This document shows positions 8,228 to 63,025 of a stretch of DNA of 64,000 bases, piece after piece. The position numbers and the translations under genes were made by a program. The notes beneath the pieces were generated by a model. That model did no database searches, was not told the origin of the DNA, and saw only the letters and a program-made list of their open reading frames with translations. Positions within the stretch are counted from its first letter, which is position 1. Each line of letters opens with the position of its first letter. Source of the stretch: Pseudomonadota bacterium (lineage in GTDB: Bacteria; Pseudomonadota; Alphaproteobacteria; Caulobacterales; Hyphomonadaceae); NCBI GenBank assembly GCA_039817025.1, contig JBCBWQ010000001.1:25422-89421 (forward strand), given 5' to 3'.

Positions 8228-8984
8228 ATATTTGATCTCTGTTGGCTGACGGACGCGCAAATGGTGCGCCCAACCCCCTTCTTCCAAAACTCCTACGGTA
8301 AGCCACGCCTTGATGACCTACGCGTATTGAGCGGGATTATTTTCATCAAGCGCGATGGGTTGAGGTGGCCAGACGCACCTGCGGCCTATGGCCCACACGC
8401 GACTTTCTAAAACGGATGGAAGCGGTGGAGCGACAAGGGTATCTTCGCTCGGGTGATGGCCGGTCTGGCCGCCGAACACTGCGAAGATAAGGCAGTGATG
8501 ATCGACGCCATCTACCTAGGAGCCCACCGCACAGCGACCAGTTTAGGCGTTAGAAAGGGGGCGTGGACGCCTGATCGGTCGCACGAAAGGCGGCATGAAC
8601 ACCAAGCTGCCTGCCATCTGCGACAGCAAAGGCCCACCGCTCAATCTGTTCGACACGGCCGGGCAAGTCAGCGACTACATCGGAGCGCGTGCACTACGAA
8701 GCAGGGTGCCGGACATTGATTGGTTGGTTCCGGATCGCGGCTCTGACGCCGATTAGTTACGAGAAGTGTTGAAAAACAAAGGAATACGCGCCTGCATCCC
8801 CTGCCGGAAGCAGCCCAAGAAACCGATAAAGCACGACAAGCGCCTCTACAATCGCCGCAACTGGATCGAGATCATGTTCGGCAGACTGAAGGATTGGCCG
8901 CGCGTGGGGAACTCATATGACCGCTATCCGAAAGTTTCCCTCTCGGCATTCGCCCTCGCTGCAACTGGGATCTATTGGATGTGA
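8228..8984 (+). pseudogene. IS5-family (IS427-like) transposase, start codon lost and multiple frameshifts
   Basis: Three consecutive frames read (I)FDLCWLTDAQM...GKPRLDDLRVLSGIIFIKRDGLRWPDAPAAYGPH / WKRWSDKGIFARVMAGLAAEH...MIDAIYLGAHRTA / KNKGIRACIPCRKQPKKPIKHDKRLYNRRNWIEIMFGRLKDW. The first codon is ATA. Confidence 0.8.
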
Positions 8985-8993
8985 TTCCCGATG

Positions 8994-9275
8994 CTAGGCG
9001 GCGATGGCGTATTCTTCGTCGGGCTTGTAGCTGCAGATCTTTTCCACAATGCGATCGGCGTCTTCGATGCACTTAACGCGGCGCAGGACGAACTGAATGG
9101 CTTCGGGGAAAGTATCCTGCTGCTCCGAGCAACGTTCCAACGCCCCTTCAAGGTCGCTGAGGTGTTGTTCGCTAAGCCCGCCGACCACGTCAAAATAGGC
9201 TTGCTTTTGGGCCTTGATCTCGCGCAGGCGGATGACTTCGGAGGCACGCTTCGGAGTTGGGATACATGCAATCAT
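8994..9275 (-). CDS. Hypothetical protein (93 aa from the ATG at 9275)
   Basis: ORF only. Its 3' end abuts the IS5 pseudogene, so the C-terminus may be altered. Confidence 0.3.
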   Translation of the reverse strand: MIACIPTPKRASEVIRLREIKAQKQAYFDVVGGLSEQHLSDLEGALERCSEQQDTFPEAIQFVLRRVKCIEDADRIVEKICSYKPDEEYAIAA

Positions 9276-9934
9276 CGTTATCACTCTTGACTGGCCGCGA
9301 AATGGCGCGGCTTTTAACGCTTTCCGTTTACTTACCGTCCACAGAGTGCCCGGTCTTGAAAAGGGCATTCGTGAGCGGCATCCCATTCTAGGATCTGTGG
9401 AACCGACTTACTCGTTACACTCAAGGCCGGCCAGCACACATGGCCATCCCTGAAACACACTCGGTACTCTTACACTACACCGTCGAAACTCGACGAACTG
9501 GTTACTGGCACTTGTTACACTCTCGACTGCGCCACCCTCGCGTTCGATGACGCTTGTTTGAGGCATTTGACCGTGGTTAACAATTCGCTAAATCTTCAAC
9601 ATGGTGGTGTTTTCTTTCACACCACGTTGGATGATTTGTCACCCATTGAGCCGCCTAGCGTAGGTCAGAGTATCGGTAACCCGCTGGGTCGACTGCTCAT
9701 TGTGCATTCTGGTCTCCAGCTTGCTATGGTCTAGAAATCCTAAACGAGGAAACGCAAATGGCTGTGGCTTTCTTGCCTGCCTTTGAAGCGTCTTCTGGGA
9801 ATTGACGCTTGTCCGTCTAGCTTTGAGCCGGAACGACGGCTTTTATGACGTTCGTGGATGCCGCCAAAGTGCGCCGGTCGTGTGTAAGTACGATGTTGCG
9901 CCGGGGAACTTGACCATCCGGCGCAACGGTTTCG

Positions 9935-10690
9935 CTAGGCCACGATGCTCATGTCGCGCAAGAGTTGGCGTTTCGTTGGCAGTTGCCGTTCTTTGGAGAG
10001 CGCTTTCGGAGATGTCTCCAAGAATTGTTCCATATCTGCACGTCTCATCCAAACAAACGTCTCTTCTGCCTCTAGCTCTTCGTCGGGACCAATCCATGCG
10101 CATGGTTCGCACCGTGAATAGCCGTAACGCACCGGAATGCCCTTCATCGCTAATGCGGTTGGGACCAGCCCGAATAGATAGTCAGGCGACCAAATCTTAA
10201 GTGTGATTTCGAATACGATGCGCGACATTAGTGCTGTAAAACCCTGGTTTCGCAGGCCATCGTCCCCACCCTTCAACCAGAATTCACCATGGTAGCAAAC
10301 GCGGCCCGTTATTTGGTCAAGAGACGGCAACCGTGAGAAATGGGTTTGATCCGGGTCTGCGATCATTCCTGGTGAAAGATACTTGTGCCGGTGGTCTCTC
10401 AGATGCTCTTGAAGAGACGTCTTCGACAGATCCATCAGTCTTATTGCTTGTGTGTGCACAACCTCTCGGCGGTCATTGAATGCGCAAACCCAGAAGGCGT
10501 TTTGGGCATCAATGAAAGAACTTGCAGCGTCGAAAATCGGATAGAGTGCCGTACGGTCGGATTGTGTGTTTCTAAGGCGTCTATATGCAACAAAGTCTCC
10601 GCCGATCTCGATCCGCAAACCCGCGGCCTCGAGCTCTTTTACAATATTAGAAACATTTACGATTGTGGTGAAAAGGCTTAGGGCAGTCAT
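9935..10690 (-). CDS. Hypothetical protein, possibly a GNAT-fold acyltransferase
   Basis: 251 aa. ...YHGEFWLKGGDDGLRNQGFTALMSRIVFEI... contains an (R/Q)xxGx(G/A/T)-like motif in a beta-strand/helix context typical of GNATs. No LuxI signature was seen. Confidence 0.35.
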   Translation of the reverse strand: MTALSLFTTIVNVSNIVKELEAAGLRIEIGGDFVAYRRLRNTQSDRTALYPIFDAASSFIDAQNAFWVCAFNDRREVVHTQAIRLMDLSKTSLQEHLRDHRHKYLSPGMIADPDQTHFSRLPSLDQITGRVCYHGEFWLKGGDDGLRNQGFTALMSRIVFEITLKIWSPDYLFGLVPTALAMKGIPVRYGYSRCEPCAWIGPDEELEAEETFVWMRRADMEQFLETSPKALSKERQLPTKRQLLRDMSIVA

Positions 10691-11255
10691 TTCGTTTTCT
10701 CCTTGTGTGCAGCGTGAGGAGGGAAATTATCAATCGCTTACCAAATCTCTCCAATAGAATTTTTGCAATATAAGTTTGGAAAAGGAAAATTTCATCAATT
10801 TCATGAAAATATAAGTATTATACACGAAATTTGAGCTTTTTGATCGCTCGCTTGCGCGGTTCGTCGTCAAGCCGTAGGGCTTGGAATTAAAGGGTACAAG
10901 AGGCATTATGCGCTAGGTGATTATTACGTGCACTACAGCGCGTCACCTTCCAGGTCTGAATTTGGATTGGAAGCTCCCACTTTTTCCGAGGGAGTTGGGT
11001 CATTTGAATTGCCAGTTTCTCTACTGAGAGGCCGAGGAAGTCCAAAGACGTTAATTGCGCTCAAATCATTTTTGAACGAGTGCATGCGCCGTTCTGATGT
11101 AACTTAATCTAGCCCACCCTAGAGAATAGTCTGGGCGAAACATTGCCTGCGGAATCCCTTTCGTCTCCTACGCCTCTACGAAGCTATGGGTCCTATTCTA
11201 CCTTGAAAAGAAATATACTTCCGGATTGGTGAGTGCCGTTACACCAGAGCTGATG

Positions 11256-12131
11256 CTACGTGAACACGTCGTAGTTTTCTGCAGGACTTGGGTTCATTTC
11301 TTGCGCTAGTGCATCTATTTCGACCTCCCTTGTAATGATCACCAGAACGGCCAATACCGGTGTTTGGTCAGGAAGCAACAGAGTCATAAGCAGTCTTTGG
11401 AAGGTAACGGGTACCGGTTCCGGGCTGTCTTCCCTCGGGAGGTGCGCGAACACATGATCCAGTCTGGCCTCGCCGCCTCGATGGACTTTAGAATAAGTCT
11501 CCGAAACCATGCGATCAAATTCGGTGCCGGCCTGGTCCTCGCTTGACAGGTTGCCAACGGCACTTTTTGACCATGCCCATCCAAACCACCGTGTGTATGC
11601 AGACTGATCACCGATCTCCACGCAGAGCCATCCGCGAGGATCTTTCTTGTAAATGATAATATGGGGTCGAATTTCCTGGAAGGCCAAGGACTCCAACTTT
11701 GCCGATGATGCTGCCCAGGCGGCAAGCGCCTCTTGAACGAGGGGGCTCGCTTTGTGTGACATGTGACAAAGCGGGTGTTGTTGGGAAAATGATTCCCGGC
11801 CATCTCCATCAATACAGTGTGACGTCTCAAGCTGCGGCCTAGTAGGTGTCGTAGTGCTAGCGCGCGCGCACCAGCGTTCGGTGAGCGATAGGATTGCCTT
11901 TGCATCGTCGACCATTGCTGCGCCAAGCGGGGTCAGTGCATAATTGTTCCGATTTAACGCAAACAGCGGTGCGCCTTTGAGTTCCTCAAGGTGGGAAATA
12001 TAGCGCCGCACAGTCTGCCGCGTCAGACCTAGTTCGGAAGATACTCGTGTGAGGTTCGGGCTTTTCGAGAGCGCAATGAATGCTCGGAGCATCTCGAGGG
12101 TCTTGTTATCGCCAATGTGCTTCTGAGCCAA
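11256..12131 (-). CDS. Transcriptional regulator with a LysR-type N-terminal HTH and an unrecognised C-terminal domain
   Basis: LEMLRAFIALSKSPNLTRVSSELGLTRQTVRRYISHLEELKGAPLF is a LysR HTH. The remaining 200 aa do not show the usual LysR substrate-binding pattern by eye. Confidence 0.65.
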   Translation of the reverse strand: MAQKHIGDNKTLEMLRAFIALSKSPNLTRVSSELGLTRQTVRRYISHLEELKGAPLFALNRNNYALTPLGAAMVDDAKAILSLTERWCARASTTTPTRPQLETSHCIDGDGRESFSQQHPLCHMSHKASPLVQEALAAWAASSAKLESLAFQEIRPHIIIYKKDPRGWLCVEIGDQSAYTRWFGWAWSKSAVGNLSSEDQAGTEFDRMVSETYSKVHRGGEARLDHVFAHLPREDSPEPVPVTFQRLLMTLLLPDQTPVLAVLVIITREVEIDALAQEMNPSPAENYDVFT

Positions 12132-12398
12132 GTCTATACATCACAGAGATATTTTCAGTGCCTGCATGATATATCATACGCCTTCGGTCGATGGCTATAC
12201 CAACGGAGACAAATAGACTTGGAATTCACACCGCGCACTCGGGCACTTACGCGTGCGCGGAGGTGTTTGGTCCGCTTGTGCGGGTATTTGGGAGTACACA
12301 GAGGTTGATTGATCGACATCACTATGTGGGCGAACTTGGTGCAGGGCCATGGCACCGCGCGCAATTGGCATTTGATCGCGATGGCTTCCGAGCGTGCA

Positions 12399-12698
12399 AT
12401 GGCGAAGTTTGACATAGACCCAACCGAATTCGATGTCGCCGTAGGTGCAGTTTTGAGGTCGCAGCGTAAGAAAGCCGGTTTGGAGGCAAAGCTCGTTGCC
12501 GAGGCGATTGGAGCCAAAGTGGAACAGATTTCGCGCTACGAAGCTGGCACTAACAAAGTCTCAGTTATGCGCCTTTGCCAGTTGGCGAACGTCTTTGATG
12601 TACCCCCATCCGCATTGATGCTGGAAATTGAAGTGAGAGTTTCACAGGGTGCCAAGCTGTCGCGGTCAGACAGCTTCAGGAAAAATCAAAGAACTTAG
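12399..12698 (+). CDS. XRE-family HTH protein, PraR-like paralog lacking the C-terminal domain
   Basis: LRSQRKKAGLEAKLVAEAIGAKVEQISRYEAGTNKVSVMRLCQLANVFDVPPSALMLEIEV is near-colinear with the ORF at 56260..56688. It ends about 45 aa earlier. The start was chosen by alignment; the track ORF starts at 12309. Confidence 0.7.
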   Translation: MAKFDIDPTEFDVAVGAVLRSQRKKAGLEAKLVAEAIGAKVEQISRYEAGTNKVSVMRLCQLANVFDVPPSALMLEIEVRVSQGAKLSRSDSFRKNQRT

Positions 12699-13410
12699 CC
12701 CAAACGGCTTCGCGGGCATTTGCACGGAGCTCTCGTGTGGCCCGAATGGCACTGATGCTTGCGAGAAGACGGCAGCACACCAGCGTAGCTGTTGCTGGGT
12801 GCATCAAGCCTGGTTCTCTAAATCCGATTTGCGGAAGCAGCAGCGATCTGAGGCGAGGGAACGATTTTGTATGGTGTCGCGTTCAGTAAGTGGGCTCCGC
12901 CTACCAACTTGCACGTTGCGTCGCGCAAATAACGGACTATGGGAAACGCTACCGCAACAGCTTTGAGGTTTTATCATAGACAGCTTCAAGATGCTCGAGC
13001 AGTGTGAAGCCGATGACAGCAGATAGTGCAACGCCGGATACGAGTAATCTGCGCGTGGCTGGTTCTTTAGCGCTAGAAAGCGGCTCAACATGCGCCCGCA
13101 CGTTATATCGCACGCATGTGCACTCCTCTACAGAGTTGATGGCAGCGTTGTATCGCCGCTTTTCGAATCCATGCCTGCCGATCAAGATTCTACCCTAGGT
13201 TAATGGTTGAAGTGAGCATTCCTAATAAGGGTTGATTTGTCAACATCAGCCAGTAATGTGGCCATATGAGTGGTGTTATAGCCGCTGGTCTGCATGGAGT
13301 GTTTAGGCGTACGCGTATGCTGTCGGGATGTAGTTTGAAACCTAATTGCCAGAACTGGCCGAGATGATAAGCAGGCCCGGGGGGGCGAGGAGACTGGTGA
13401 AGAAGGTGAA

Positions 13411-13626
13411 ATGGCGATCGACAAGGATGTACCTGCGCTTGCTGAGCGTTTTTTTGATGGGGCCAAAGAAGACTATGAGTTTGTGGCGCATGCCATAAGC
13501 GACCCAGTCGTCCTGTCGCTAATGGAAATTGCCGCCGCGCTCGGGTCAGAGGAGCGCGACCAACTGCTGTTTTTCGCAGAAGATCTGCAGTTGGAAGCAA
13601 TGCGGTGCAAGAATGGCAACGGGTAG
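13411..13626 (+). CDS. 71-aa protein resembling the PraR-type C-terminal domain only (no HTH)
   Basis: FFDGAKEDYEFVAHAISDPVVLSLMEIAAALGSEERDQLLFFAEDL. The F..(12)..FV..ISDP.V...L..L..AL pattern matches the C-terminal part of PraR/PhrR-like regulators as I recall them. It is convergent with the XRE gene at 13706..14122. Confidence 0.55.
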   Translation: MAIDKDVPALAERFFDGAKEDYEFVAHAISDPVVLSLMEIAAALGSEERDQLLFFAEDLQLEAMRCKNGNG

Positions 13627-13705
13627 CCTAAGCTTCCTGATCGGATACTGCAAAGAAGACATGATCCAGGGGTTGGTCAGAGACTGGCGCCGCCAGTGAA
13701 GAAAT

Positions 13706-14122
13706 TCACTTTCGCTGACTGCGCGACGCAAGCTTCGCTACTGTGGCAAGTGCCGCGCTGAAGTCTTCGTTATCCATTTCCACCAAAGACGACGTCAAAA
13801 TGCGGCCGGTCGAGGAACCAAGAAAGGCAAGCTCTTGGGCGCGTTCATGCGTTTGCGATGCTTCTGGATCGCGAAGTGCGTTTTCAAGCTCACTTAGAAG
13901 CGCCACGGCATCAACGCCGACTGCTTGTGCAATTGCAAGCAGTCTGTGTACGGAAACCCGATTGAGCCCGACCTCATACTTCTGAATTTGCTGAGCTGAA
14001 GTGCCCACTGAGCGCCCAAGGTCTTCTTGTGAAAGCCCGGCCGATTTGCGGTGAAGCCGGATCAGGTTGCCCAAAGCTTCATCAGTCTTCTGTGGGTCAG
14101 GTGCTGTCATCTGTGCCCGCAA
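13706..14122 (-). CDS. XRE-family regulator, PraR/PhrR-like (HTH plus C-terminal domain)
   Basis: LIRLHRKSAGLSQEDLGRSVGTSAQQIQKYEVGLNRVSVHRLLAIAQAVGV..., then ...ELAFLGSSTGRILTSSLVEMDNEDFSAALATVAKLA. Confidence 0.8.
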   Translation of the reverse strand: MRAQMTAPDPQKTDEALGNLIRLHRKSAGLSQEDLGRSVGTSAQQIQKYEVGLNRVSVHRLLAIAQAVGVDAVALLSELENALRDPEASQTHERAQELAFLGSSTGRILTSSLVEMDNEDFSAALATVAKLASRSQRK

Positions 14123-14303
14123 AACTCCGGTTGCTGGTCTAGTATACGCCCAAGGTCACCTCTGTGTTGTTGAACAAGCACGCGCTACCTCTGCGGACGG
14201 CATATGAGCGCAAGTCCTTACGAAATGCGAGAGAATTCTGGTTGAGCGCCGGGAAGGAGCATCATTTTGCTGAAGGATGTGCAAACCCGGCGGGCCTGTC
14301 ATT

Positions 14304-15632
14304 CTATTCAGTGTCAGCCAAGGCGGTTGCCAATGCTTCAAAGGCCTCCTCAGCCGAAACGTTTTGGTTCCCGTCCTGGATAAGCCTTGCCTCCAATGTG
14401 CCCCGGACCGCCACTGCTCGATCAACACTTGCGTCGGATCCTTTCTGGTAGGCGCCGAGCCGGATAAGGTCTGCCATCTTTTCGTACAGAGACAACGCTT
14501 CCCTGGCCTGTCTCAGCATCGCGTTCTCCTGATCCGAATGGCACCCCGGCAGCATCCGAGAGACGCTACGCAAAAGGTCAACGGCTGGGAAACGGCCACT
14601 TTCGGCTATGGTGCGATCCAACAGAATGTGGCCGTCCAGCATGCCGCGAACGCCGTCCGAGATTGGATCGTCCAAATTGTCGCCCTCAGCGAGTACTGTA
14701 TACAGCGCTGTGATATCGCCTTGTTGCTGGCTTCCTGGGCCAGATCGCTCGACCAAACGCGGAAGTTCGGCAAAGACCGTTGGGGGAAAGCTACGTTGAG
14801 CGGGAGGTTCGCCGGTTGCGAGGCCAATCTCGCGCTGCGCGTGTGCAAACCGGGTGACGCTGTCGAGGATTAGCAGGACGTGTCGCCCTGAGTCGCGAAA
14901 GTGCTCCGCCACGGCGGTGGCTGTCCAGGCGGCTTGGCGGCGTGTAAGCGCCGGCTCATCGCCAGTGGCCACCACGATAACCGAGCGCGCCATGCCAATG
15001 GGCCCCAGGTCACGCTGCACGAAGTCTTGCAGCTCGCGCCCGCGCTCGCCAATCAGGCCAATGACGACAACGTCTGCCTGTGCCTGCATGGCCAGTTTTG
15101 CGATCAGGGTCGATTTGCCAACGCCGGGGCCTGCGAAGATTCCCATCCGCTGACCCCGGCAGATCGGTGCAAATACATCGATGCTGGACACCCCGGTGCT
15201 TAGCCGCGCGCCGGTCCGACGACGCGCGTATGCTGGCGGGGGGGCATTGCGTGCGCAGCGCTGGGCGGTTCCATTTTGCAATGGGCCCTTGCCATCAACC
15301 GGCATGCCGAATGCATTCACGACGCGGCCGATCCAGGCGTCATGCGGGCGCAAGGTCGAACCACCCGTTTGTACTTCCACTGGGTCGCCCTCGGTGACGC
15401 CGTCCCAGTTTCCAAAGGGGAGCACGCTGCAACCGAGGCTTTGGATGCTGACGACTTCGCCTCGAACAGGCCCGTTTGCGCCATGTACAAGACAGTGCTG
15501 CCCGATCCCCAAAAAGCCACCAAGGCCGCGGACTGTCAGCAAAAGGCCCGAGACGCTCGCGACTTCACCTTCCAACCGTGTTCCGGTGGTTGTGGCAAAA
15601 ACACTATTAAGATTAGCCAAGCCGGGAGTCAT
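14304..15632 (-). CDS. fliI: Flagellum-specific ATPase FliI
   Basis: Walker A GPGVGKST, then VVVIGLIGERGRE, and a T3SS/F1-ATPase-like C-terminal region. Confidence 0.95.
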   Translation of the reverse strand: MTPGLANLNSVFATTTGTRLEGEVASVSGLLLTVRGLGGFLGIGQHCLVHGANGPVRGEVVSIQSLGCSVLPFGNWDGVTEGDPVEVQTGGSTLRPHDAWIGRVVNAFGMPVDGKGPLQNGTAQRCARNAPPPAYARRRTGARLSTGVSSIDVFAPICRGQRMGIFAGPGVGKSTLIAKLAMQAQADVVVIGLIGERGRELQDFVQRDLGPIGMARSVIVVATGDEPALTRRQAAWTATAVAEHFRDSGRHVLLILDSVTRFAHAQREIGLATGEPPAQRSFPPTVFAELPRLVERSGPGSQQQGDITALYTVLAEGDNLDDPISDGVRGMLDGHILLDRTIAESGRFPAVDLLRSVSRMLPGCHSDQENAMLRQAREALSLYEKMADLIRLGAYQKGSDASVDRAVAVRGTLEARLIQDGNQNVSAEEAFEALATALADTE

Positions 15633-15686
15633 GAATAAAATCCTTGTATCTGATTTTAATCATGATAAAGGTTCTGTTAAATCTTG
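15631..15686. repeat. fliI/flgB spacer: variant copies of the cluster motif (ATGAATAAA, TTAAATCTTG) and two TTAA half-sites 21 nt apart
   Basis: Read directly: ATGAATAAA at 15631-15639, TTAA at 15656 and 15677, TTAAATCTTG at 15677-15686. Confidence 0.4.
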
Positions 15687-15700
15687 CAAAGACGTAAAAC

Positions 15701-16087
15701 ATGGATAGCGCATCTTTTTTTGATCTTGCCTCGAAGCGGATGGCCTGGCTGGCCGAGACGCAGCGCGTCGTCGCGGAAAACGTGGCGAATGCCGACACGC
15801 CTGGCTTCAAGGCGCGGACGACCGAGGGCTTTGAAAAAATGCTGAGCGACGGTGTGCAGGCACATCTAAAAGTGTCGCATCCCGGTCATATCGGCAGCAC
15901 GCAGGCGACAAGCGTTCGTGTTGATGTCGACCCGGATGCGTGGGGGGCCAGCCCCAATGGCAACACGGTCGCGCTGGAACAACAATCGATCAAGGCCAAC
16001 GAGATCAATGAAAACTACCAACTGGCCGCCAGCCTCTATCGAAAGGGCCACGAGCTTGTCCGTCTTGCAGCAACGGGCGTGCGGTAA
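15701..16087 (+). CDS. flgB: Flagellar basal-body rod protein FlgB
   Basis: QRVVAENVANADTPGFKA N-terminal rod motif, and its position before flgC. Confidence 0.92.
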   Translation: MDSASFFDLASKRMAWLAETQRVVAENVANADTPGFKARTTEGFEKMLSDGVQAHLKVSHPGHIGSTQATSVRVDVDPDAWGASPNGNTVALEQQSIKANEINENYQLAASLYRKGHELVRLAATGVR

Positions 16088-16099
16088 GGAGGATTTGCA

Positions 16100-16510
16100 A
16101 TGGATCCCTTGAAATCAATCTCGGCCATTGCCGCCAGTGGCATGCACGCGCAGGGCGTGCGCCTGAAGGTCACGGCTGAGAACGTCGCCAACGCCGGTTC
16201 AACCGGCAACACTCCGGGTGAGGATCCGTTCCGGCGTAAGACCGTGTCGTTCTCAGAGATGGTCGACCGTGCGAGCGGCAATTCGCTGGTTCAGGTCGGC
16301 GCAATCGGACGTGACCAGTCAGACTTCCCGCTCAAATACGACCCCGTGCATCCGGCCGCCGATGAGCGGGGCTATGTGCGCACATCAAATGTGAGCTCGA
16401 TCATCGAGATGAACAATATGCGCGAAGCGTCGCGCAGCTACGAGGCCAACATCAACATGTTCGATGCAGGCCGCCGGATGCGGCGGCAGATGCTGGATAT
16501 GTTGAAGTAA
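16100..16510 (+). CDS. flgC: Flagellar basal-body rod protein FlgC
   Basis: LKVTAENVANAGST... and C-terminal SNVSSIIEMNNMREASRSYEAN. Confidence 0.93.
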   Translation: MDPLKSISAIAASGMHAQGVRLKVTAENVANAGSTGNTPGEDPFRRKTVSFSEMVDRASGNSLVQVGAIGRDQSDFPLKYDPVHPAADERGYVRTSNVSSIIEMNNMREASRSYEANINMFDAGRRMRRQMLDMLK

Positions 16511-16523
16511 AGGGGCAGGGGCG

Positions 16524-24609: not shown

Positions 24610-24680
24610 CAAGAATTAAATTGAATTTGTTCTTGCATACGATGATTTAACAAAATATAAAATCGCTAACGCAAGATTAA
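24610..24680. repeat. fliL/fliF divergent spacer: CAAGAATTAA (24610-24619), TTAA-N7-TAAA (24647-24661), CAAGATTAA (24672-24680)
   Basis: Read directly. The minus-strand reading of 24667-24680 is TTAATCTTGCGTTA, identical to 44887-44900. Confidence 0.6.
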
Positions 24681-33673: not shown

Positions 33674-33925
33674 GGTGGCGAACGGAACTATAAGGACTTG
33701 AGGACGGTTAACCAAGACGTAACCATGCATGCAAATATAAAACGCATATGAGTATCCTAGATTTGTTTGTGACCAATGTTTATAATGGTCTGTGTTCTTG
33801 ACGCAGTGCTAGATAGGTCGAAGAATTCGACGATCATTTTGGTCCCACCTGTGCGCTAAAGGTTGTTTTGCGCGTAAGGGGCCAAGGATCCTCGTGAACT
33901 GCGAGGTGAGAAAAGAGGTCAGAAG

Positions 33926-34402
33926 ATGACACAGCAAGATAAGAAAAGTGAGATGATCGCCCAGATCGTATCGGCCTTCGCGTCGCGCACCGACGTTACG
34001 GCAGCCGATATAGCGGAATTAACCCTGAAATTGACGCAAGAGCTTGCAGCGGCGCCCGACGATGACAGCGCTGTGATGCCTAGCGCCTATAACGCTGCGA
34101 CCGCGCAGGCCGCACCCAAACCTTCCGTTAACAATACCGAACGCGCCGTCCCGGCAATTGCCATCGAAGACGCGGTGACACCGTCAAAGGTGTATTGCCT
34201 GTGCTGCGGAAAGGGCTTCAAGATGCTCAAGCGGCATCTTGGTGCCGTCCATGGTTTGACTGAGGACGAGTATCGCGAAAAGTTCAATTTACCGAAAGAC
34301 TTCCCGCTGGTCGCGCCAGAGTATTCCGCGATGAAAGCAGAGACGGCCGCGAGGCTTGGTCTTGGCAAGTACGAGCGTGCGAAAGCCGATCCTGTCGACT
34401 GA
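33926..34402 (+). CDS. mucR: MucR/Ros-family zinc-finger transcriptional regulator
   Basis: KVYCLCCGKGFKMLKRHLGAVHGLTEDEYREKFNLPKDFPLVAPEYS is the Ros/MucR signature. Confidence 0.9.
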   Translation: MTQQDKKSEMIAQIVSAFASRTDVTAADIAELTLKLTQELAAAPDDDSAVMPSAYNAATAQAAPKPSVNNTERAVPAIAIEDAVTPSKVYCLCCGKGFKMLKRHLGAVHGLTEDEYREKFNLPKDFPLVAPEYSAMKAETAARLGLGKYERAKADPVD

Positions 34403-35933: not shown

Positions 35934-36545
35934 ATGACGACCAAGACAGATACTCTTTTGCATGCAATTTGGACCTGTGCCGTAAGCCCCGTTCACCCTG
36001 ACGCAAAACACCCGCTCATCGCTCTTGTAGAGACTTTTCTAAAAGTAAAAGCCGTCGTGATCGAAGTCCCCACAGGTCCGCTTTGTGGCCGCGTGTTTCA
36101 GGAAACGACCGAGCTGATGCCCGATCTGCCGATTGCGGATGTCCTGGAGCACGAGCTTGATATCTGCGTTCCCGCTGGTGCGATCATCATCTGCTTATCG
36201 GCCGATGCCCAGGACACAAGGGGCAACTTACGCGCAGCGTCACGGGCATTGGGCACGTTTTGTGCCGAGGTTGTCGTCGACACCGTGCAGCTGGCCGCCA
36301 CCCCGTTTGCCGATGAACGCAAAGAGATGCGTGAACGTGCACAGGCAATAATGTCTCTGGCCCGTCAACTCGCGACTGCGCCCGGCGCCGTGGACGTCCC
36401 AAGTTTCAAGTCCGCACTGGCACGGGGTTTCGGAGAGCTTCTCGGAGGGCCGGCCAATGCGCGCTCCGCCGATGCCACGCTTGCAGCGCTGTACGTTCCT
36501 GAGGCTGACACCACTAATACGCTAGCCGCCGCCCGCAGGGTTTAA
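35934..36545 (+). CDS. Hypothetical protein upstream of the sigma factor gene
   Basis: A 203-aa ORF with coding-like GC3 and no motif recognised. Confidence 0.5.
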   Translation: MTTKTDTLLHAIWTCAVSPVHPDAKHPLIALVETFLKVKAVVIEVPTGPLCGRVFQETTELMPDLPIADVLEHELDICVPAGAIIICLSADAQDTRGNLRAASRALGTFCAEVVVDTVQLAATPFADERKEMRERAQAIMSLARQLATAPGAVDVPSFKSALARGFGELLGGPANARSADATLAALYVPEADTTNTLAAARRV

Positions 36546-36557
36546 TCAAGCATTAAC
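36542..36557 (+). promoter_or_regulatory. Perfect CtrA-type box TTAATCAAGCATTAAC (TTAA-N7-TTAAC)
   Basis: Read directly. It overlaps the stop of the 35934..36545 ORF and lies 68 nt upstream of the sigma gene ATG. Confidence 0.55.
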
Positions 36558-44880: not shown

Positions 44881-44920
44881 ACGGGTTTAATCTTGCGTTA
44901 ACCGCCAACCGCAAGATCAA
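44872..44920. repeat. flgE leader composite: CAAGAATAAA-N5-TTAATCTTG, and the inverted pair TTAATCTTGCG / CGCAAGATCAA
   Basis: Read directly: 44872-44881, 44887-44897 and 44910-44920. Confidence 0.65.
44887..44902 (+). promoter_or_regulatory. Perfect CtrA-type box TTAATCTTGCGTTAAC
   Basis: TTAA-N7-TTAAC read directly, 58 nt upstream of the flgE ATG. Confidence 0.6.
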
Positions 44921-48825: not shown

Positions 48826-49548
48826 CTAACGGGTCGTCGCCTGTTGTCTGTCGAACGCGTCGGCGCTTAGCCGGTAGCCGCGGCCTGGGACCGTTTCGAT
48901 ATAGGCCGAACCTGTCTTGGTCACCGCGTCAAACTTCTTGCGGATTTTGCAGATATAGACGTCCACCACCTTGTCGAATGGCGGCACCTCAGCCACCGCA
49001 TAGACCGAGTCGTAGATTGCGGCTTTCGAGACAACGCGTCCCGCATTCAACGCAAGCTGTTGGAAGATCTCGTGCTCTTTGCTGGACAGGCGCACTCGCG
49101 AGCCGTCGATTTCGGGATCCCGCCCATCAAGGAAAGCGGTGACCGCGCCGACCCGAACCTCTTTCGTGATGTGGCCTTTCGCCCGCCGGATCGTCGCGTT
49201 GATCCGCGCTTTCAACTCAAAGCCCTTGATCGGGATCACCATATCTTGGTCCGCACCCAGATTGATCGACTGGGCCGCCGCCGCAGCGCTTCGGAAGTCG
49301 CGCATCACCACGATGGGATGCGCACATGCCGCAGAGCGAAGGGCATCGATCTGTTCGGCCAGCTGGTCTGTTTCAGCCAGCAGGAAGCCTGCTGCCATCG
49401 TGTCTTCGCGTGTCAAGAGCGACAAGTCGCGTCTGAAGAACGCCTCGTCGATAGAAACCAGTGCGAAGCCAGCGTTGGCAAGTTCGGTGCAAAGCCCCGC
49501 CATCCGTTCGCTACGGGGCTCGTGAACATAAAGCTGCATGAATACCAC
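48826..49548 (-). CDS. OmpR-family winged-helix regulator with a degenerate receiver domain (FtcR-like orphan)
   Basis: C-terminal ...LSSKEHEIFQQLALNAGRVVSKAAIYDSVY...VDVYICKIRKKF...YIETVPGRGYRL is an OmpR/PhoB DNA-binding domain. The N-terminal receiver fold lacks the acidic pocket (LYVHEPR instead of ..VDDD..), and the phospho-Asp position reads FLLAETD. Confidence 0.8.
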   Translation of the reverse strand: MVFMQLYVHEPRSERMAGLCTELANAGFALVSIDEAFFRRDLSLLTREDTMAAGFLLAETDQLAEQIDALRSAACAHPIVVMRDFRSAAAAAQSINLGADQDMVIPIKGFELKARINATIRRAKGHITKEVRVGAVTAFLDGRDPEIDGSRVRLSSKEHEIFQQLALNAGRVVSKAAIYDSVYAVAEVPPFDKVVDVYICKIRKKFDAVTKTGSAYIETVPGRGYRLSADAFDRQQATTR

Positions 49549-51544: not shown

Positions 51545-51560
51545 TTAACCCAGGCTTAAC
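51545..51560 (+). promoter_or_regulatory. Perfect CtrA-type box TTAACCCAGGCTTAAC upstream of the flagellin gene
   Basis: TTAA-N7-TTAAC read directly, about 85 nt upstream of the flagellin start. Confidence 0.6.
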
Positions 51561-51641
51561 CACGCCGAACAACCTCCTTTGCGTGGGCGAAAGCTCATCT
51601 CCTGTCAGAAGACGGGACACCAACGCTAGAAGCACAGGAGA

Positions 51642-56688: not shown

Positions 56689-57201
56689 AGCAATCCCCTA
56701 GAACGTTTGGTCTCGGAAAGAGCGAAAGCCGCCTGCGCCGAAACCTACTCACAACACAACCACCACTTTCTTTGATGAACCCCGCTATAGGGTCTGTGGT
56801 GTATCACTCTTTTTGGTGTCGCACGCGACCAACATGCGGTGCCAATTTTCATCTTGCTGCGGCAGGTACCCCCCTCGGCCGACGAGCAGCACTCCGCATG
56901 AACGCAAAGGCCCAACACTCCGACAACGAGCGTTTTGTGCTGCGGCAGCGGCGTAAGCAATCTGTTAAATTTTTGACCAAATGGTAACATTTTTCATATG
57001 GTTCTGGATGACGTTTCACCCATTGGCATTGGATCGCCGGACACCCGGCGACGTCGTTTTGTCCACTCTTGAACAGCCAAGCAGCGATTTTCGCGCCCTT
57101 TTTGGTAGAGTGTCCCGCGTGGGCTGATTGTGTTGAAAGACTCTGCTTGAGCGACGCGTCGGCTGCTTATTCACTTCCCTTGAGGCAAGGGAGGTCTGGC
57201 G

Positions 57202-57690
57202 ATGATGGAGCCAAGGCAGGTGGCGCAGAGCGCGCTGTTCTACGAGCTCTCGATCGAGGATCATGTGTCACCGGATCATGTGTTGCGCGCGATGGACCGG
57301 TTCGTCGATCTCGGCGACATGCGCCGACATCTGGCGCCGTTCTACGGCACGACAGGTAGGCCCTCGGTCGATCCCGAGCTGATGATCCGGATGCTGATCG
57401 TTAGTTACGCCTTTTGGATCCGGTCGGAGCAGCGGCTTTGCGAGGAGGTACATCTCAATCTCGCGTATCGCTGGTTTTTGTCGCCTCGATCTGAGCGATC
57501 CGGTGCCCGACCACTCGACCTTCTCGAAGAACCGGCATTGACGGTTCCGAGATAGTGACCTCTTCCGGCACCTGTTCGAGAGCGTCGTCGCCCGCTGTAT
57601 CTCCGACGGCCTTGTCGGAGGTCAGACCTTCGCTTCGGATGCCAGCCTGATACGGGCGGATGCAAACAAGCAGTACGCAGCGGCCAAGGA
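57202..57690 (+). pseudogene. IS5/IS1182-family transposase N-terminal fragment with a frameshift and an in-frame stop
   Basis: ALFYELSIEDHVSPDHVLRAMDRFVDL...GRPSVDPELMIRMLIVSYAFWIRSEQRLCEEVHLNLAYRWF. After a +1 shift it reads CRLDLSDPVPDHSTFSKNRH*RFRDSDLFRHLFESVVARCI...ASLIRADANKQ. Confidence 0.75.
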
Positions 57691-57732
57691 CGACTCAGGC
57701 CCTGTTCGCGACAGGGGACACCGTCAGAAAAC

Positions 57733-57930
57733 GCCTCCATCGAGATGTTCAACGGGCGGTTTTGAGAAGAATTTGTGAGCAGACATTGGTTCATGGGCCC
57801 TGAAGATACGGCCGAAAAGTTGGAGGCTTGGCGTAGAGACTACAACGAAGAAAGACCGCACAGCGCCATTGGGAACAACGTCCCAGCAGCGCTGATGAAA
57901 TTGTCAGACGCATCCAGCCCGTCTGTGTGA
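57733..57930 (+). pseudogene. IS3-family OrfB C-terminal fragment with an in-frame stop
   Basis: ASIEMFNGRF*EEFVSRHWFMGPEDTAEKLEAWRRDYNEERPHSAIGNNVP. Confidence 0.7.
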
Positions 57931-58128
57931 TTAAAGTACGGAAAATCTAACCACAGGCGGGGACAATTCCGGTAGCACAGCAGAATGGCGGAAACTCTGA
58001 TAACTGCCGAGCGCACGTTGGTTAGCACATCATGACCAGATATAGGTCAAGGGTGAGTTCCAATTGAGTTTTTGGCATCGGTCAAAACAATGCTTCATTG
58101 CCTGTTGTTAACCATCGACCTTGCCAAG

Positions 58129-58144
58129 TTAACCCGCCGTTAAC
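58129..58144 (+). promoter_or_regulatory. Perfect CtrA-type box TTAACCCGCCGTTAAC, plus a TTAACCAT half-site at 58108-58115
   Basis: Read directly, 48-84 nt upstream of the PAS-GGDEF-EAL start (58192). Confidence 0.55.
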
Positions 58145-58191
58145 CAGCGAAAGCAACCTCCCCAAGGCGCACCTTTGGAGACAGAGCATCG

Positions 58192-60804
58192 TTGCAACTA
58201 TTGGAATGGTTTAATCAGACGTCTGAATTTGCCACAGACGGAATCATTGTATTTGAAGATGGGCCACAGCGAACAGTCTTCTGCAATGATGCGTTTTGCG
58301 AGCAATCCGGCTACGCGCGAAACGAAGTGATAGGTCAACCGCCGCACTTGTTTCTTGGGAGTAGCTCAGATGAAGGGACCAAACCTCTAATAGCAGGCAC
58401 GCCGACCGCCAAACAAAGAGTTTTCAAGCGCCTCCAGAATTTTCGAAAAGACGGTAGACCGTATCTTGTGAACCTTGCACTGCAACGGGTCGCCTGCGCT
58501 AGTGAGCGAAAACAGTATTGGATTGGTCTTCAAAATGATCTTTCTAGGACTGAAAGTAACGAGCACAGACTTGCTATGGCTCAGACAGAGGCAGGGCTGT
58601 TTGAAAAGCGTTTGTGGGACGCAATTGAAGCCCTTCCAGATGCGTTTGTCATGTACGACAAAAACGACCGTCTCATCGCATGTAATGACAAATATAGAGA
58701 ATTCTACGCTGCTTCCGCGGACGCAATTTTTCCCGGTGCACACTTTCAGGATATCGTGCTTTGTGGCATCAAGAACGGCCAGTATCCGGAAGCTGTGGGG
58801 CGCGAAGAAGAGTGGTTGGACGAGTGGCGCGCCCGGCACAGAAAACCGGCACAACCCATTGAAAGACAGTTATCAGATGACCGTTTCATTGTGCTGCATG
58901 ACGTCATCACGGACAACGGGGATTTGGTTGGGCTCCGCACGGATGTAACAGAACTTCACAAGCAAAAGAAACAGCTCGAAGAACAGATGAAGTTCGTTGA
59001 GTTGTTGCTCAACCGAAACCCGGCTATCGTCATGTCACAAACCCGGAATTGGGCAATCCAAACCTGCTCCGATGCGTGGACCCAACAGTTTGGGTACAGC
59101 CGGGAAGAAACTGTCGGTCGCGATCTTACGGACTTTATGCCGACAGAGGATGCGAAGGTAAGCAAGACGTTCCGTGAAAGTGACCTTCTGGGTAGCTCCG
59201 GTCCTCCAATCGTCAAAAACGTCCTGACTTTGCTGACCAAGCAAGGCGAAAGGCGGTCTGTCGAGCTTCAGTCGATCATCGAAAACGAAGATGGCGATTG
59301 GCGCAACATCATCGCCATGACCGACATATCACCGATTGTGCGCGCCAGAGATGAACTCCAGCGGCTCGTTGAGAATGATGAGCTCACCGGTCTGAAGTCC
59401 AGACGAGGGCTTCGGCGCAGATTCACAGATGGTGAGAGAAAAACTGACTACGGATTCTTTCTCATCGATCTTGACTACTTCAAATCTGTAAACGACGGGT
59501 ATGGCCATGAGGCGGGCGACCGGCTTTTGCAAGCCGTAGCAGACAGTCTTGTTGACATTACGGAGACCGTTGGCTGCCCATTTAGACTTGGCGGTGAAGA
59601 GTTTGCCGTCGTCCGCCCCTGGGACGGGTGGGCCGAAGCTGCGTTGTTCGCGGAAGAGCTTCGCAGGAAACTCGAACAAGCCTCAGTCTTGTTTCAAGGC
59701 AAACTTATCCAGCGCACAGCCAGTATTGGTTACATTGAGGTTAAGGAAAACGACGAGCTTTCGACAGCGATGCACCTGGCAGATCTTGCGCAGCGCGAGG
59801 CCAAATCGTCAGGGCGAAACAAGTCGCTGCCGGCGGACGCGGAGATGCTGCGTTCGTTGGAGCGGCGAGGCGCCTTCATCGGAATTGACCACATTCAGGC
59901 GGCTCTGGACGCAGGCGAGTTCTACTACGACGTTCAGCCGATCGTACATGCTGGCAATGACCGCATCGCCGGGTTTGAGGCTCTAATTAGATGGCAAAAA
60001 CCCAATGGCGATATCGTAATGCCGGACATGTTTATAGAGCCATTGCATGAAGTTGTGCGTCAGCCATTTTTTGGAAAGCTGAAAAATGAACTTCGCGTTG
60101 ATGTTGTCAAAAGCTTGGCTCAGTTCAAAGGCCGATATGTTGGGTTCAACTTTGTGCTTGAAGAGATTGCACATCCAGGTGCGGCCGAGAAGATCTACAA
60201 GGCATTTTGCGGAACGATCGAGGAAAGTAACATCCGAATACTCATCGAAATCTCTGAGCGAGCTTTTCACTCGCGCGTGGACTCAGAGATGCTTATCGGC
60301 GAGTTGGAGAAATTACGCGATATGGGCTTTCTCATAGCGCTCGATGATTTCGGTGTTGAATCCAGTAACATACAGAGACTGCAACAATTCCCAATCGATG
60401 TCGTGAAACTCGACAGAAGCCTAATTCGCGAGCTGGTCGACAACGAACGACAGCGAACAACGGTTTTTTCCATTGCACGCATGATCGAGAACCTTGGACT
60501 AACGTGCATTGTCGAGGGCGTCGAAACAGAACAGCAGGCCCAAATGCTTCAAGAGATGGGGCTAGTCGTCCATCAGGGCTTCTTTCACGCGAGACCAATG
60601 TCGCCTGAGGCAATTGTTGCACGTCAGCAGGACAAAGGCGGCCAACCCGACGCGGTTCACGGCGACGCAAGCGCACCTTGCGGTGTGTCGAACCCTACGC
60701 CCAAGGCACCGCGTCAGGGCGCTGACCCTGAACCCAACTCTCCCACATCGCCCGACGAAGAAGCTCAAACCCCTCCAATTGTAGAGCGACCGGCGCTGGA
60801 TTGA
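58192..60804 (+). CDS. Multi-PAS GGDEF-EAL c-di-GMP turnover protein
   Basis: 870 aa with a TTG start. PAS-like repeats; FLIDLDYFKSVNDGYGHEAGD...RLGGEEFAVV (GGDEF); FEALIRWQ...EISE...LDDFG...KLDRSLI...EGVETEQQ...HQGFFHARP (EAL with catalytic motifs). Confidence 0.9.
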   Translation: MQLLEWFNQTSEFATDGIIVFEDGPQRTVFCNDAFCEQSGYARNEVIGQPPHLFLGSSSDEGTKPLIAGTPTAKQRVFKRLQNFRKDGRPYLVNLALQRVACASERKQYWIGLQNDLSRTESNEHRLAMAQTEAGLFEKRLWDAIEALPDAFVMYDKNDRLIACNDKYREFYAASADAIFPGAHFQDIVLCGIKNGQYPEAVGREEEWLDEWRARHRKPAQPIERQLSDDRFIVLHDVITDNGDLVGLRTDVTELHKQKKQLEEQMKFVELLLNRNPAIVMSQTRNWAIQTCSDAWTQQFGYSREETVGRDLTDFMPTEDAKVSKTFRESDLLGSSGPPIVKNVLTLLTKQGERRSVELQSIIENEDGDWRNIIAMTDISPIVRARDELQRLVENDELTGLKSRRGLRRRFTDGERKTDYGFFLIDLDYFKSVNDGYGHEAGDRLLQAVADSLVDITETVGCPFRLGGEEFAVVRPWDGWAEAALFAEELRRKLEQASVLFQGKLIQRTASIGYIEVKENDELSTAMHLADLAQREAKSSGRNKSLPADAEMLRSLERRGAFIGIDHIQAALDAGEFYYDVQPIVHAGNDRIAGFEALIRWQKPNGDIVMPDMFIEPLHEVVRQPFFGKLKNELRVDVVKSLAQFKGRYVGFNFVLEEIAHPGAAEKIYKAFCGTIEESNIRILIEISERAFHSRVDSEMLIGELEKLRDMGFLIALDDFGVESSNIQRLQQFPIDVVKLDRSLIRELVDNERQRTTVFSIARMIENLGLTCIVEGVETEQQAQMLQEMGLVVHQGFFHARPMSPEAIVARQQDKGGQPDAVHGDASAPCGVSNPTPKAPRQGADPEPNSPTSPDEEAQTPPIVERPALD

Positions 60805-60873
60805 TCGCGCACGCGAGATCGCTCGACAGCCGCGCGCATAAGCAAATTCTCTTCGACAGAAAGCGCAATTTCG

Positions 60874-62766
60874 ATGGAACAATCACTAGCATTGACCGCA
60901 TCGGCATTGTGGATCTCTTTTGCGTTCTTCGCACAAGGACTGTCGCAAGGCGCGTCGCGGCTTCTAATCTGGTCAACGTTTGCGGTACTGATGTGCTATT
61001 TTGGATGGCGCGTCGCCTTCACTATTCTTCCCTTCTGGCACGACGCGGACATCTTCGTGGTTTGGGTCCTGATCTTCCTGGCCGCTGAGATTCTCAGTGT
61101 CGCGGATTTCCTTCAATGCTGTGCATTCAAAAGCTTGTCCTCCGCGCACCAAAAAACGACTCGTCACCGCGTGCTACCCAGGTTTTCGGCTAAGCGGCAT
61201 CGGTCGACGGTTGATCTGCTTATTCCGACTTATAGCGAACCGGTTGAACTGCTGCGCAAGACTCTGATCCGAGCGAAAGAGATCGATTATGATCACCTGA
61301 CCATCAATTTGCTGGACGATGCGCGAAGAAATGAAGTCAAAGAGCTGTGTCGTGAGCTTGGCGTCACCTACTTCTCGCGCGCCGATAACGTCGGCGCTAA
61401 AGCCGGCAATATGAACAATGCCTTGCCGCAACTAAAGGGTGAGTTTCTGGCAATTCTCGACGCCGACTTCTTGGCATTTGAGAACTTTGCCAAAGCAGCA
61501 CTTCCCTATTTCGATGATTCAGCTGTGGGATGCGTGCAATTCCCGCAGACGTTCTACAATCCTGATCCGTCTCAGATTAACTCAGGGCTTTTTGCGACGT
61601 TCAAAGACGAGCAATGGCACTGGTTTCGGCGGGTCCTTCCAGAGCGCGACCTCTTGGACCTCGCCACGTCTTGCGGAAGTTGTTCGTTTGTCCGTCGGTC
61701 TGCTCTTGAGGCGATCGGGGGGCGGTTTCCTGAAGAGACGATTACCGAGGATTTTGACCTGTCACTTCGGTTCTTGGAACGAGGTTTCGTAACGCGGTAC
61801 GTAAACGAGACTGTCGCGATCGGGCTGTCCCCGTTCACAACGCAAGACTTCTTCAAGCAACGTCAAAGGTGGGCGCTTGGCAATCTTTCTGCGTGGCGTC
61901 GCGCGTTTTTGTCCAGAAAGAAGATCAGGCTTTATGAACTGCTGCTGATTTTTGAATGGAGGATTGTGAGTCTACCTGCCCGTGTTGTCACCTTCCTGGG
62001 TCCGGTCGTCGTCCTGCTGTTTGACCTGTGGCCGCTCAAAGTCACATCCTTTTCTGAGTATGCGCTGTTCACGGTTCCGTTTATCTTCCTGCTCTGCTCG
62101 TTTGAGGCCAGCAGCGGCCCGCGATCTGCTTTCGGGTTTATTGCATCCCAAGCTCGGACGATTGGAGTTGCTTTGGTTTTAGGCGTGCAATTCCTTCTTA
62201 CACCATTGGTGAGCAACAAGCTCGGGTTCAGCGTAACACCCAAGACCGCCGGAAAGCAGGGTGCAGATCGCTTCTTCATGATCATTTTCTTGAGCGCTCT
62301 CCTTTCCGCAGGTGCGCTTGCGGTCGGACTGTACCGCTACGCAGAGGCGGACGCGGTCTCACACACACTGGAAGTCGTATTGGCATGGCAAGCATACAAC
62401 TTGTTGCTTGTTTCAGTCGCGACTTGGATGTTCAGACCAACCGTAGCCAAACGTATGAGCGAACGGTTTTTGCCGATTGATTGTCTGGAAGTGGACGTCG
62501 CAGATACGAAAGGTGCCTTCGTAGCGACGGCAGACACTATTGACGTGTCAGAAGGAGGAATGAGACTTCGCTCACAGCAGGCTCTGAATAGCGAACGATA
62601 CAAAGTGCTATTTGACAACGAATGGGCCGATGTTGAAGTCCTTCGATGTGTTAGAATAAGCGCGAGTGAATGGCACATCTCCTTGGTGTTTTCGGACCCC
62701 AACGCTGTATCTGACCATATTGTAAGGCTGATCTACTCGCAGAGCTTTAAAGCAGAGATCCTTTGA
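60874..62766 (+). CDS. BcsA-like family-2 glycosyltransferase with C-terminal PilZ domain (c-di-GMP-gated polysaccharide synthase)
   Basis: N-terminal TM helices; LIPTYSEP...LDDARR...ILDADF...TEDFDLSLR...QRQRWALGN (D, DxD, TED, QxxRW); further TM helices; PilZ motifs RMSER (RxxxR) and DVSEGG (DxSxxG). Confidence 0.85.
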   Translation: MEQSLALTASALWISFAFFAQGLSQGASRLLIWSTFAVLMCYFGWRVAFTILPFWHDADIFVVWVLIFLAAEILSVADFLQCCAFKSLSSAHQKTTRHRVLPRFSAKRHRSTVDLLIPTYSEPVELLRKTLIRAKEIDYDHLTINLLDDARRNEVKELCRELGVTYFSRADNVGAKAGNMNNALPQLKGEFLAILDADFLAFENFAKAALPYFDDSAVGCVQFPQTFYNPDPSQINSGLFATFKDEQWHWFRRVLPERDLLDLATSCGSCSFVRRSALEAIGGRFPEETITEDFDLSLRFLERGFVTRYVNETVAIGLSPFTTQDFFKQRQRWALGNLSAWRRAFLSRKKIRLYELLLIFEWRIVSLPARVVTFLGPVVVLLFDLWPLKVTSFSEYALFTVPFIFLLCSFEASSGPRSAFGFIASQARTIGVALVLGVQFLLTPLVSNKLGFSVTPKTAGKQGADRFFMIIFLSALLSAGALAVGLYRYAEADAVSHTLEVVLAWQAYNLLLVSVATWMFRPTVAKRMSERFLPIDCLEVDVADTKGAFVATADTIDVSEGGMRLRSQQALNSERYKVLFDNEWADVEVLRCVRISASEWHISLVFSDPNAVSDHIVRLIYSQSFKAEIL

Positions 62767-63025
62767 AGTGCGTGCTGTGTAGCCGAAGCGCGCACAGGTC
62801 TGACAAGTCTCTCTGGACGTGTCGCGGTTTGATGCCGCTCCTTTGATAGAATGTATTGCGGCTTTGCTTGGTTCCGGATTTCTGTCTCATCTCCACTCCC
62901 GGGTGGTTACGATGTGCCAGAAACCCTCCCTTATCAAATCGACCTAAACTGTCCCAATGGTGCTGACGTCGGACAATGGGCGCTGCGAGTAGAACGATGG
63001 ATAGGAACGCGAAAATTCAAGTCGC

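Follow-up and report, generated by a model that had tools for sequence, protein, structure and literature searches.

The best explanation of our data is that the PAS-GGDEF-EAL gene described here is transcribed from an activating promoter that is read by CtrA, a reading to which we assign a probability of about 0.65. Upstream of this gene lies a full CtrA-type box that stands out by its enrichment, by its conservation among orthologs, and by a geometry that it shares with flagellar promoters, and the genome encodes CtrA, ChpT, and a CckA-like kinase. The gene resides in a stretch of 64 kb (the window), which stems from marine metagenomes and belongs to a genome of 2.93 Mb in 370 contigs with a GC content of 60%. 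Its promoter region comprises the following elements, of which the operator, the hexamer, and the transcription start are predictions:

58108-58115, + strand: half-site TTAACCAT, with the first TTAA of the box 21 bp downstream
58129-58144, + strand: full CtrA-type box TTAACCCGCCGTTAAC (TTAA-N7-TTAAC), which as a predicted operator would overlap the -35 region
58154-58159, + strand: predicted -10-like hexamer CAACCT, 10 nt past the box
58166-58168, + strand: predicted transcription start at a purine, placed by the geometry of the mapped R. sphaeroides fla2 CtrA promoters
58177-58181, + strand: ribosome-binding site GGAGA, of which GGAG is kept in orthologs
58192, + strand: TTG start codon of the 870-aa PAS-GGDEF-EAL gene, with an aligned TTG in orthologs

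A preliminary description had located the half-site and the box 84 to 48 nt before the TTG codon, and the sequence confirms these positions: TTAACCAT begins 84 nt and the box ends 48 nt upstream of position 58192. Together with its flanks, TTAACCAT forms a 12-nt direct repeat (GTTAACCATCGA) of 58139-58150. The whole stretch is reproduced by independent metagenome assemblies, which show zero differences across the box (57000-59000 compared). A search among RNA-seq and metatranscriptome runs returned none that contains the stretch. The last in-frame stop before the 870-aa open reading frame is the TAA inside the second TTAA of the box (58141-58194), which means that the gene cannot start any further upstream. 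Moreover, the rare TTG start occupies the same aligned position in 8/8 full-length orthologs, and its context GCATCGTTGCAACT is largely conserved. A scan of the promoter region returned no consensus sigma-70 promoter, terminator, or stable hairpin, and no Rfam riboswitch or sRNA was found within 57850-58300.

One alternative would deny the box any regulatory role and see in it an AT-rich match that arose by chance in intergenic DNA of low GC content scarred by IS elements. The composition of the DNA lends this view some substance: The 58-62 kb region has a GC content of 52% versus 60% for the genome, TTAA is generally 3.5-fold enriched in the intergenic DNA of the genome, and TTAACCAT is found at chance level both in the window (1 observed versus 0.67 expected) and genome-wide (12 versus a median of 16 for permuted 8-mers). 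The half-site alone is not beyond chance, and because it is also absent from the orthologous promoters (0 carry a copy), its designation as a CtrA half-site in the preliminary description is not supported; the 21-bp distance at which it precedes the box corresponds to the TTAA-N17-TTAA arrangement that is enriched genome-wide. The counts for the full box point in the opposite direction. The window contains four TTAA-N7-TTAA boxes versus 0.18 expected, a number reached by 0/100 shuffles, and the genome contains 11 versus ~3.6 per spacing at other spacings, with 10 of these 11 being intergenic, which makes it very unlikely that the full box is a chance match. A box devoid of function becomes hardly credible in view of the orthologs, since in 8/9 of them the TTAA halves are retained at a fixed offset from the gene while flank and spacer have diverged.

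For this footprint, nine ortholog loci (L006 and L008-L015) were taken from unrelated metagenome contigs, whose proteins are 64-77% identical to the PAS-GGDEF-EAL protein at the amino acid level, and their promoters were anchored on the start codon; L006, whose contig ends before the promoter, was left out of the promoter comparison. Among the nine orthologous genes compared, that of the window included, the eight with a box carry it either intact or with one mismatch: A perfect box lies at -61 to -63 from the start in the window, L011, L012, L008, and L010, a one-mismatch box lies at -63 and -64 in L009 and L013, respectively, and the CHASE-domain variant L015 has a perfect box at -74. The promoter of L014 is the one in which the box is absent, and a box is likewise missing from the 834-aa relatives, which are more distant (49% identity; HTCC2150, Octadecabacter). 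Pairwise identity is 94% for the TTAA halves and drops to 45% for the N7 spacer and to 27%, the random level, for the 40 nt upstream; within the predicted hexamer, A58156 and T58159 are invariant across the alignment. The conservation of the TTAA halves amid diverging flank and spacer implies that the half-sites are under selection and travel with the gene clade. This comparison supports the view that selection maintains the box as a genuine CtrA-type element. It accompanies the PAS-GGDEF-EAL gene in unrelated contexts, several of which adjoin IS elements. An origin of the box as part of the IS debris was ruled out, as orthologs without that IS retain it. A scan of the genome contigs for the gene returned only a 5′-truncated copy (L006) and one unrelated match.

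In L009, L013, and L015, a CBS-GGDEF gene neighbors the PAS-GGDEF-EAL gene. It has a CtrA-type box of its own, which is perfect and at -64 from the start in L009 (L009:2641-2655) and has one mismatch in L013 (L013:1501-1515), where it lies at ~-50 to -64 as judged by eye. The genome of the window contains no ortholog of this CBS-GGDEF gene.

A further observation concerns the spacing of TTAA half-sites in the genome as a whole. The strongest peak belongs to TTAA-N17-TTAA, in which the half-sites are 21 bp apart: There are 21 copies, compared to 5 for N16, 6 for N18, and ~3.6 on average over spacings, and this peak is derived from a within-genome spacing histogram only, a reversed-pattern control in relatives being uninformative. 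The pairs are direct repeats of the consensus gTTAAyC...gTTAAC, 17 of the 21 are intergenic, and those in the window lie at 58108-58132 and 15656-15680. They are located just upstream of genes with best matches to CckA, DivJ/PdhS, TipF, and FtsN (all sub-cut-off), of parC (above cut-off), and of flgB, with one more, read by eye only, before a PBP-like ORF. N17 pairs may thus represent a second CtrA-site architecture. The tripartite arrangement TTAA-N17-TTAA-N7-TTAA of the PAS-GGDEF-EAL promoter recurs once, outside the window at C278:762-797, where it precedes an unannotated membrane ORF that is cut by the contig end. A PodJ-like identity, considered for the ORF behind the box on contig C93, was discarded for want of family support.

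The gene behind the promoter and its downstream neighbor are arranged as follows:

58192-60804, + strand: PAS-PAS-PAS-GGDEF-EAL gene, 870 aa, TTG start
60805-60873, + strand: intergenic gap of 69 nt without terminator-like hairpin
60874-62766, + strand: gene of a BcsA-like GT2 glycosyltransferase with putative C-terminal PilZ domain, 630 aa

The 870-aa protein matches the Pfam families GGDEF (99 bits) and EAL (166 bits), contains three PAS-type domains, and has its GGEEF, EAL, DDFG, and EGVE motifs all intact; no RxxD I-site precedes the GGEEF motif. With both GGEEF and EAL intact, the enzyme may synthesize c-di-GMP or break it down, according to its PAS inputs. The first of the PAS domains (58275-58360, residues ~28-57) is LOV-like (YtvA family, 70 bits) and reads GQPPHLFLG where LOV domains have GxNCRFLQ, so that the photoactive cysteine is missing. 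Among the ~9 GGDEF/EAL genes of the genome, only the one encoding the 870-aa protein is preceded by a perfect box. The 630-aa protein clearly matches GT2 families, its marginal PilZ match reaches 22.1 bits where the cut-off is 22.5, and the protein as a whole reaches 278 bits against the CelA model TIGR03030, for which the cut-off is 699.

The preliminary description had further treated the two genes as a pair. The 69-nt gap and the common strand stand in the window, and the short, terminator-free gap suggests that the genes are probably co-transcribed; as a general feature of the locus, the pairing does not hold. The GT2-PilZ gene directly follows the PAS-GGDEF-EAL gene in only 4/9 loci, namely the window, L006, L008, and L011, the copy in L011 being cut by the contig end. 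In L009, L010, L012, and L013, IS elements or other genes are found in its place, and the contig of L014 ends at this point. Comparison of the loci shows that the box goes with the PAS-GGDEF-EAL gene and not with its GT2-PilZ partner.

The PAS-GGDEF-EAL gene itself is accessory and mobile: None of 40 genomes from the same genus, family, and order encodes an ortholog of its protein, and IS3-, IS110-, and IS240-type genes adjoin the orthologs in L009, L010, and L015. In the window, the promoter is bordered on its upstream side by the remains of IS elements:

57202-57930, + strand: IS5/IS1182 and IS3 fragments upstream of the promoter, with the junction confirmed in independent assemblies

An XRE-family gene and an IS scar lie between the PAS-GGDEF-EAL gene and the flagellar cluster, so that the separation of the two is not by IS debris only, as had been supposed. 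Likewise, the notion of a hard-wired motile-sessile decision point overstates the case for a gene that is accessory, of low GC content, IS-flanked, and absent from 40 relatives. The association with the flagellar island is nonetheless found a second time. In L008, the gene pair is located between inverted homologs of the 6.2-10.7 kb segment of the window and the left border of the island (XRE, fliI, flgB, flgC), whereas the pair of the window is found past the right border, separated from the island by a paralogous XRE gene and the IS scar (L008:295-14512 compared with 6206-16521 and 58174-62772 of the window). As the pair adjoins the same island in both, the association has been kept in two lineages despite rearrangement, and the left- and right-border positions suggest an IS-mediated relocation of the pair.

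A near-identical copy of the locus was encountered in L006, the 5.4-kb contig C214 of MAG G041 (Pseudomonadota bacterium J06616_22), which has 100% nucleotide identity to 60355-60900 and a GT2-PilZ gene that is 99.7% identical. Either mis-binning or a transfer in the recent past could account for this near-identity. At its start, the contig carries 59 nt that repeat an internal gene segment in inverted orientation, probably as an assembly artefact. In G041, no FlgE match was found and the promoter region is missing, which is why this MAG cannot separate CtrA from the island-encoded paralog introduced below as potential readers of the box.

A predicted regulatory link to the flagellum is drawn by additional boxes within the flagellar cluster of the window:

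51545-51559, + strand: perfect CtrA-type box in front of the flagellin gene; CAACCT follows after 10 nt (51570-51575)
44887-44901, + strand: perfect CtrA-type box in front of flgE; CAAGAT follows after 10 nt
36542-36556, + strand: perfect CtrA-type box before the sigma-70-family gene of the flagellar cluster
24647-24661, + strand: one-mismatch box (TTAA-N7-TAAA) in front of fliF; CAAGAT follows after 10 nt
33708-33722, + strand: one-mismatch box (TTAA-N7-GTAA) ~200 nt before the Ros/MucR gene

The claim that the same type of cis-element fronts the flagellin and hook genes is hence borne out, and the agreement extends to the spacing: A box followed after 10 nt by CAACCT or CAAGAT is common to the flagellin, flgE, fliF, and PAS-GGDEF-EAL promoters, and this architecture (box + 10 nt + CAAsrT) occurs only on contig C111, which carries the flagellar island and the PAS-GGDEF-EAL gene. 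The Ros/MucR-family gene (33926-34402) lies inside the flagellar cluster, and its one-mismatch box is followed after 10 nt by AAATAT. A comparison of the flgE upstream regions across 24 relatives was uninformative as to boxes: Several loci were unoriented, and FlgE proved to be at most 42% identical to that of any relative, which indicates that the island is of a foreign flagellar type.

In the mapped CtrA-activated fla2 promoters of R. (Cereibacter) sphaeroides, the distance from box end to transcription start is 23-24 nt, position -11 is invariably A, and the leaders comprise 12-33 nt (Rivera-Osorio et al. 2018, PMC6180460). Transferring this geometry to the PAS-GGDEF-EAL promoter, we infer a start at ~58167 (G), which would place A58156 at -11 and leave a leader of ~25 nt. 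With this predicted start, the promoter would fit the fla2 promoters in its distance from box to start, its A at -11, its short leader, and its lack of a canonical -35 element, and the flagellin, flgE, and fliF promoters of the window fit the same geometry. The fla2 promoters differ in that they were defined by 5′-RACE, mutagenesis, and ChIP (PMC6180460), whereas the start given here is a prediction and the gene driven is that of a c-di-GMP enzyme and not a flagellar one.

The same geometry bears on the sign of the regulation. CtrA might bind the box and repress the gene, or time its expression to the non-motile phase; CtrA does repress some promoters at which its site overlaps the -10 region (background in PMC6180460), and if transcription began upstream, for example in the IS debris, the box would come to lie downstream of the start. 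The spacing that separates the box from the start codon and from the conserved -10-like hexamer fits activated promoters, however, and the sequence upstream of the box is unconserved in every ortholog, which leaves no conserved upstream promoter. We give repression little chance and retain activation by CtrA as the preferred reading.

The question of which protein reads the box is posed by the presence of two candidates. The genome's CtrA passes the NCBIfam equivalog NF045991 (Rhodobacterales CtrA) with 412.5 bits versus a cut-off of 350, and it is 78% identical overall, and nearly identical in the DNA-binding domain, to Caulobacter CtrA. ChpT (PF10090) is present above cut-off, and a CckA-like kinase scores best against the CckA model, at 607 bits, which is under the cut-off of 1000 bits. 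Paired half-sites of the GTTAAC type are found elsewhere in the genome before cckA-like, divJ/pdhS-like, tipF-like, ftsN-like, parC, and parE genes, of which parC and parE score above the NCBIfam cut-offs and the others are best sub-cut-off matches only. Perfect N7 boxes and TTAA-N17-TTAA pairs of the genome share the half-site consensus gTTAAyC in direct repeat. The resemblance of the genes behind the paired half-sites to the CtrA regulon favors CtrA as the reader. Within the 400 nt upstream of ctrA itself (contig C337), there are several TTAA(C) half-sites (GGTTAATTAAT, GGTTAACTTTTGCGCAAGGTTAATTG, TTGTTAATG) and no canonical N7 box, a constellation compatible with autoregulation through non-canonical spacing.

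The second candidate is encoded in the island:

48826-49548, - strand: CtrA paralog, an orphan OmpR-type, FtcR-like regulator with a degenerate-looking receiver

This paralog could be the main reader of the box, alone or together with the island sigma factor, in which case the PAS-GGDEF-EAL gene would be a member of the flagellar-island regulon. Among NCBIfam models it scores best against that of CtrA (118.6 bits), its identity to CtrA is 34%, and recognition helix (KVVDVYICKIRKKF in the paralog versus KIIDVFICKLRKKL in CtrA) and wing (IETVPGRGY versus IETVWGRGY) are near-identical. The confinement of the box + 10 nt + CAAsrT architecture to a single contig makes the paralog a real rival, and the adjacency of the gene pair to the same island in L008 agrees with this, as does the fact that the paralog, the flagellar type of the island, and the PAS-GGDEF-EAL gene are all absent from the 40 relatives, apart from a 42% match to the paralog in a single genome from a different family. 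A flagellar regulator of the island is not expected, however, to target cckA-like, parC, parE, ftsN-like, and tipF-like genes, before which identical GTTAAC pairs are found, and the box persists in orthologs that reside in IS-rich contexts without flagellar genes in view. The degenerate look of the receiver also speaks against the paralog. Moreover, the only FtcR motif reported, that of Brucella, is TGTGGGCA and not TTAA (PMC9456535), with the reservation that the orthology of the paralog to FtcR is uncertain. We therefore regard the paralog as an unlikely principal reader and continue with CtrA.

For a CtrA-read promoter, the following mechanism can be proposed: The box at 58129-58144 would act as a CtrA-type operator and form the upstream half of the PAS-GGDEF-EAL promoter. 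Most likely, phosphorylated CtrA, encoded elsewhere in the genome, would bind both TTAA half-sites over the -35 region and activate the start at ~58167 via the -10-like CAACCT at 58154-58159, an arrangement that would equal that of the flagellin, hook, and fliF promoters of the genome. Since the promoter type is shared with flagellar genes, the c-di-GMP enzyme would be made together with the flagellum. The BcsA-like GT2-PilZ synthase, 69 nt downstream, would in this genome probably be placed on the same transcript, and the three PAS domains would set the local c-di-GMP level post-translationally and thereby gate the synthase.

Similar couplings are known from other bacteria. The flagellar regulon of E. 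coli, which is governed by the regulators FlhDC and FliA, includes pdeH (yhjH) and ycgR. As in our proposal, a c-di-GMP enzyme is transcribed within the flagellar program and a PilZ protein responds to c-di-GMP; the regulators are unrelated, however, and the PilZ protein of E. coli acts on the motor and not on a polysaccharide synthase. CtrA controls flagellar and c-di-GMP-related genes such as tipF. In Caulobacter it is essential and centered on the cell cycle, whereas in Rhodobacterales it mainly serves motility, gene transfer agents, and related traits. The promoter analyzed here shares with the Caulobacter crescentus CtrA regulon the full site TTAA-N7-TTAA and the sequence of the half-site TTAACCAT, and its box is predicted to lie near -35, as activating sites do (background in PMC6180460); it differs in that the TTAACCAT form is not supported as functional at the PAS-GGDEF-EAL promoter.

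CtrA sites at both c-di-GMP and flagellar genes are already known, for example from Dinoroseobacter shibae, in which such sites were predicted in the promoters of dgc2 and of flagellar genes (Koppenhofer et al. 2019, PMC6473078) and in which c-di-GMP genes respond to CtrA and the quorum-sensing cascade (PMC6473078). For R. capsulatus, loss of ctrA is cited in PMC9756655 as altering the transcripts of c-di-GMP enzyme genes. D. shibae, a member of the Rhodobacterales, resembles our case in the CckA-ChpT-CtrA relay and in the TTAA-N7-TTAA-type sites before flagellar and c-di-GMP turnover genes. The target in D. shibae is a chromosomal diguanylate cyclase with transcriptome support, whereas the PAS-GGDEF-EAL gene targeted here is accessory, flanked by IS elements, and in some loci accompanied by a PilZ-gated synthase, and its control is predicted from a phylogenetic footprint.

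A wider interpretation, conceivable but on balance doubtful, would regard the PAS-GGDEF-EAL gene, with or without the PilZ-gated synthase, as a portable cassette with its own CtrA-type promoter, which IS elements move among marine alphaproteobacteria and which plugs into the CtrA-like regulon of the recipient. In the present genome, this cassette would have become attached to a xenologous flagellar island with its own CtrA paralog and sigma factor, and would share the box + 10 nt + CAAsrT promoter of the island's late flagellar genes; N17 pairs would be the commonest CtrA-type arrangement of the genome, with the focal promoter combining N17 and N7.

These results do not alter the established view that motility and c-di-GMP signaling are coupled through CtrA in Rhodobacterales. 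To this view, the present analysis adds a well-footprinted case, from an uncultured marine alphaproteobacterium, of a c-di-GMP enzyme under predicted CtrA-type control, with precise coordinates for the predicted operator, the -10 element, and the transcription start, and it indicates that a CtrA-type promoter can travel with an accessory gene.
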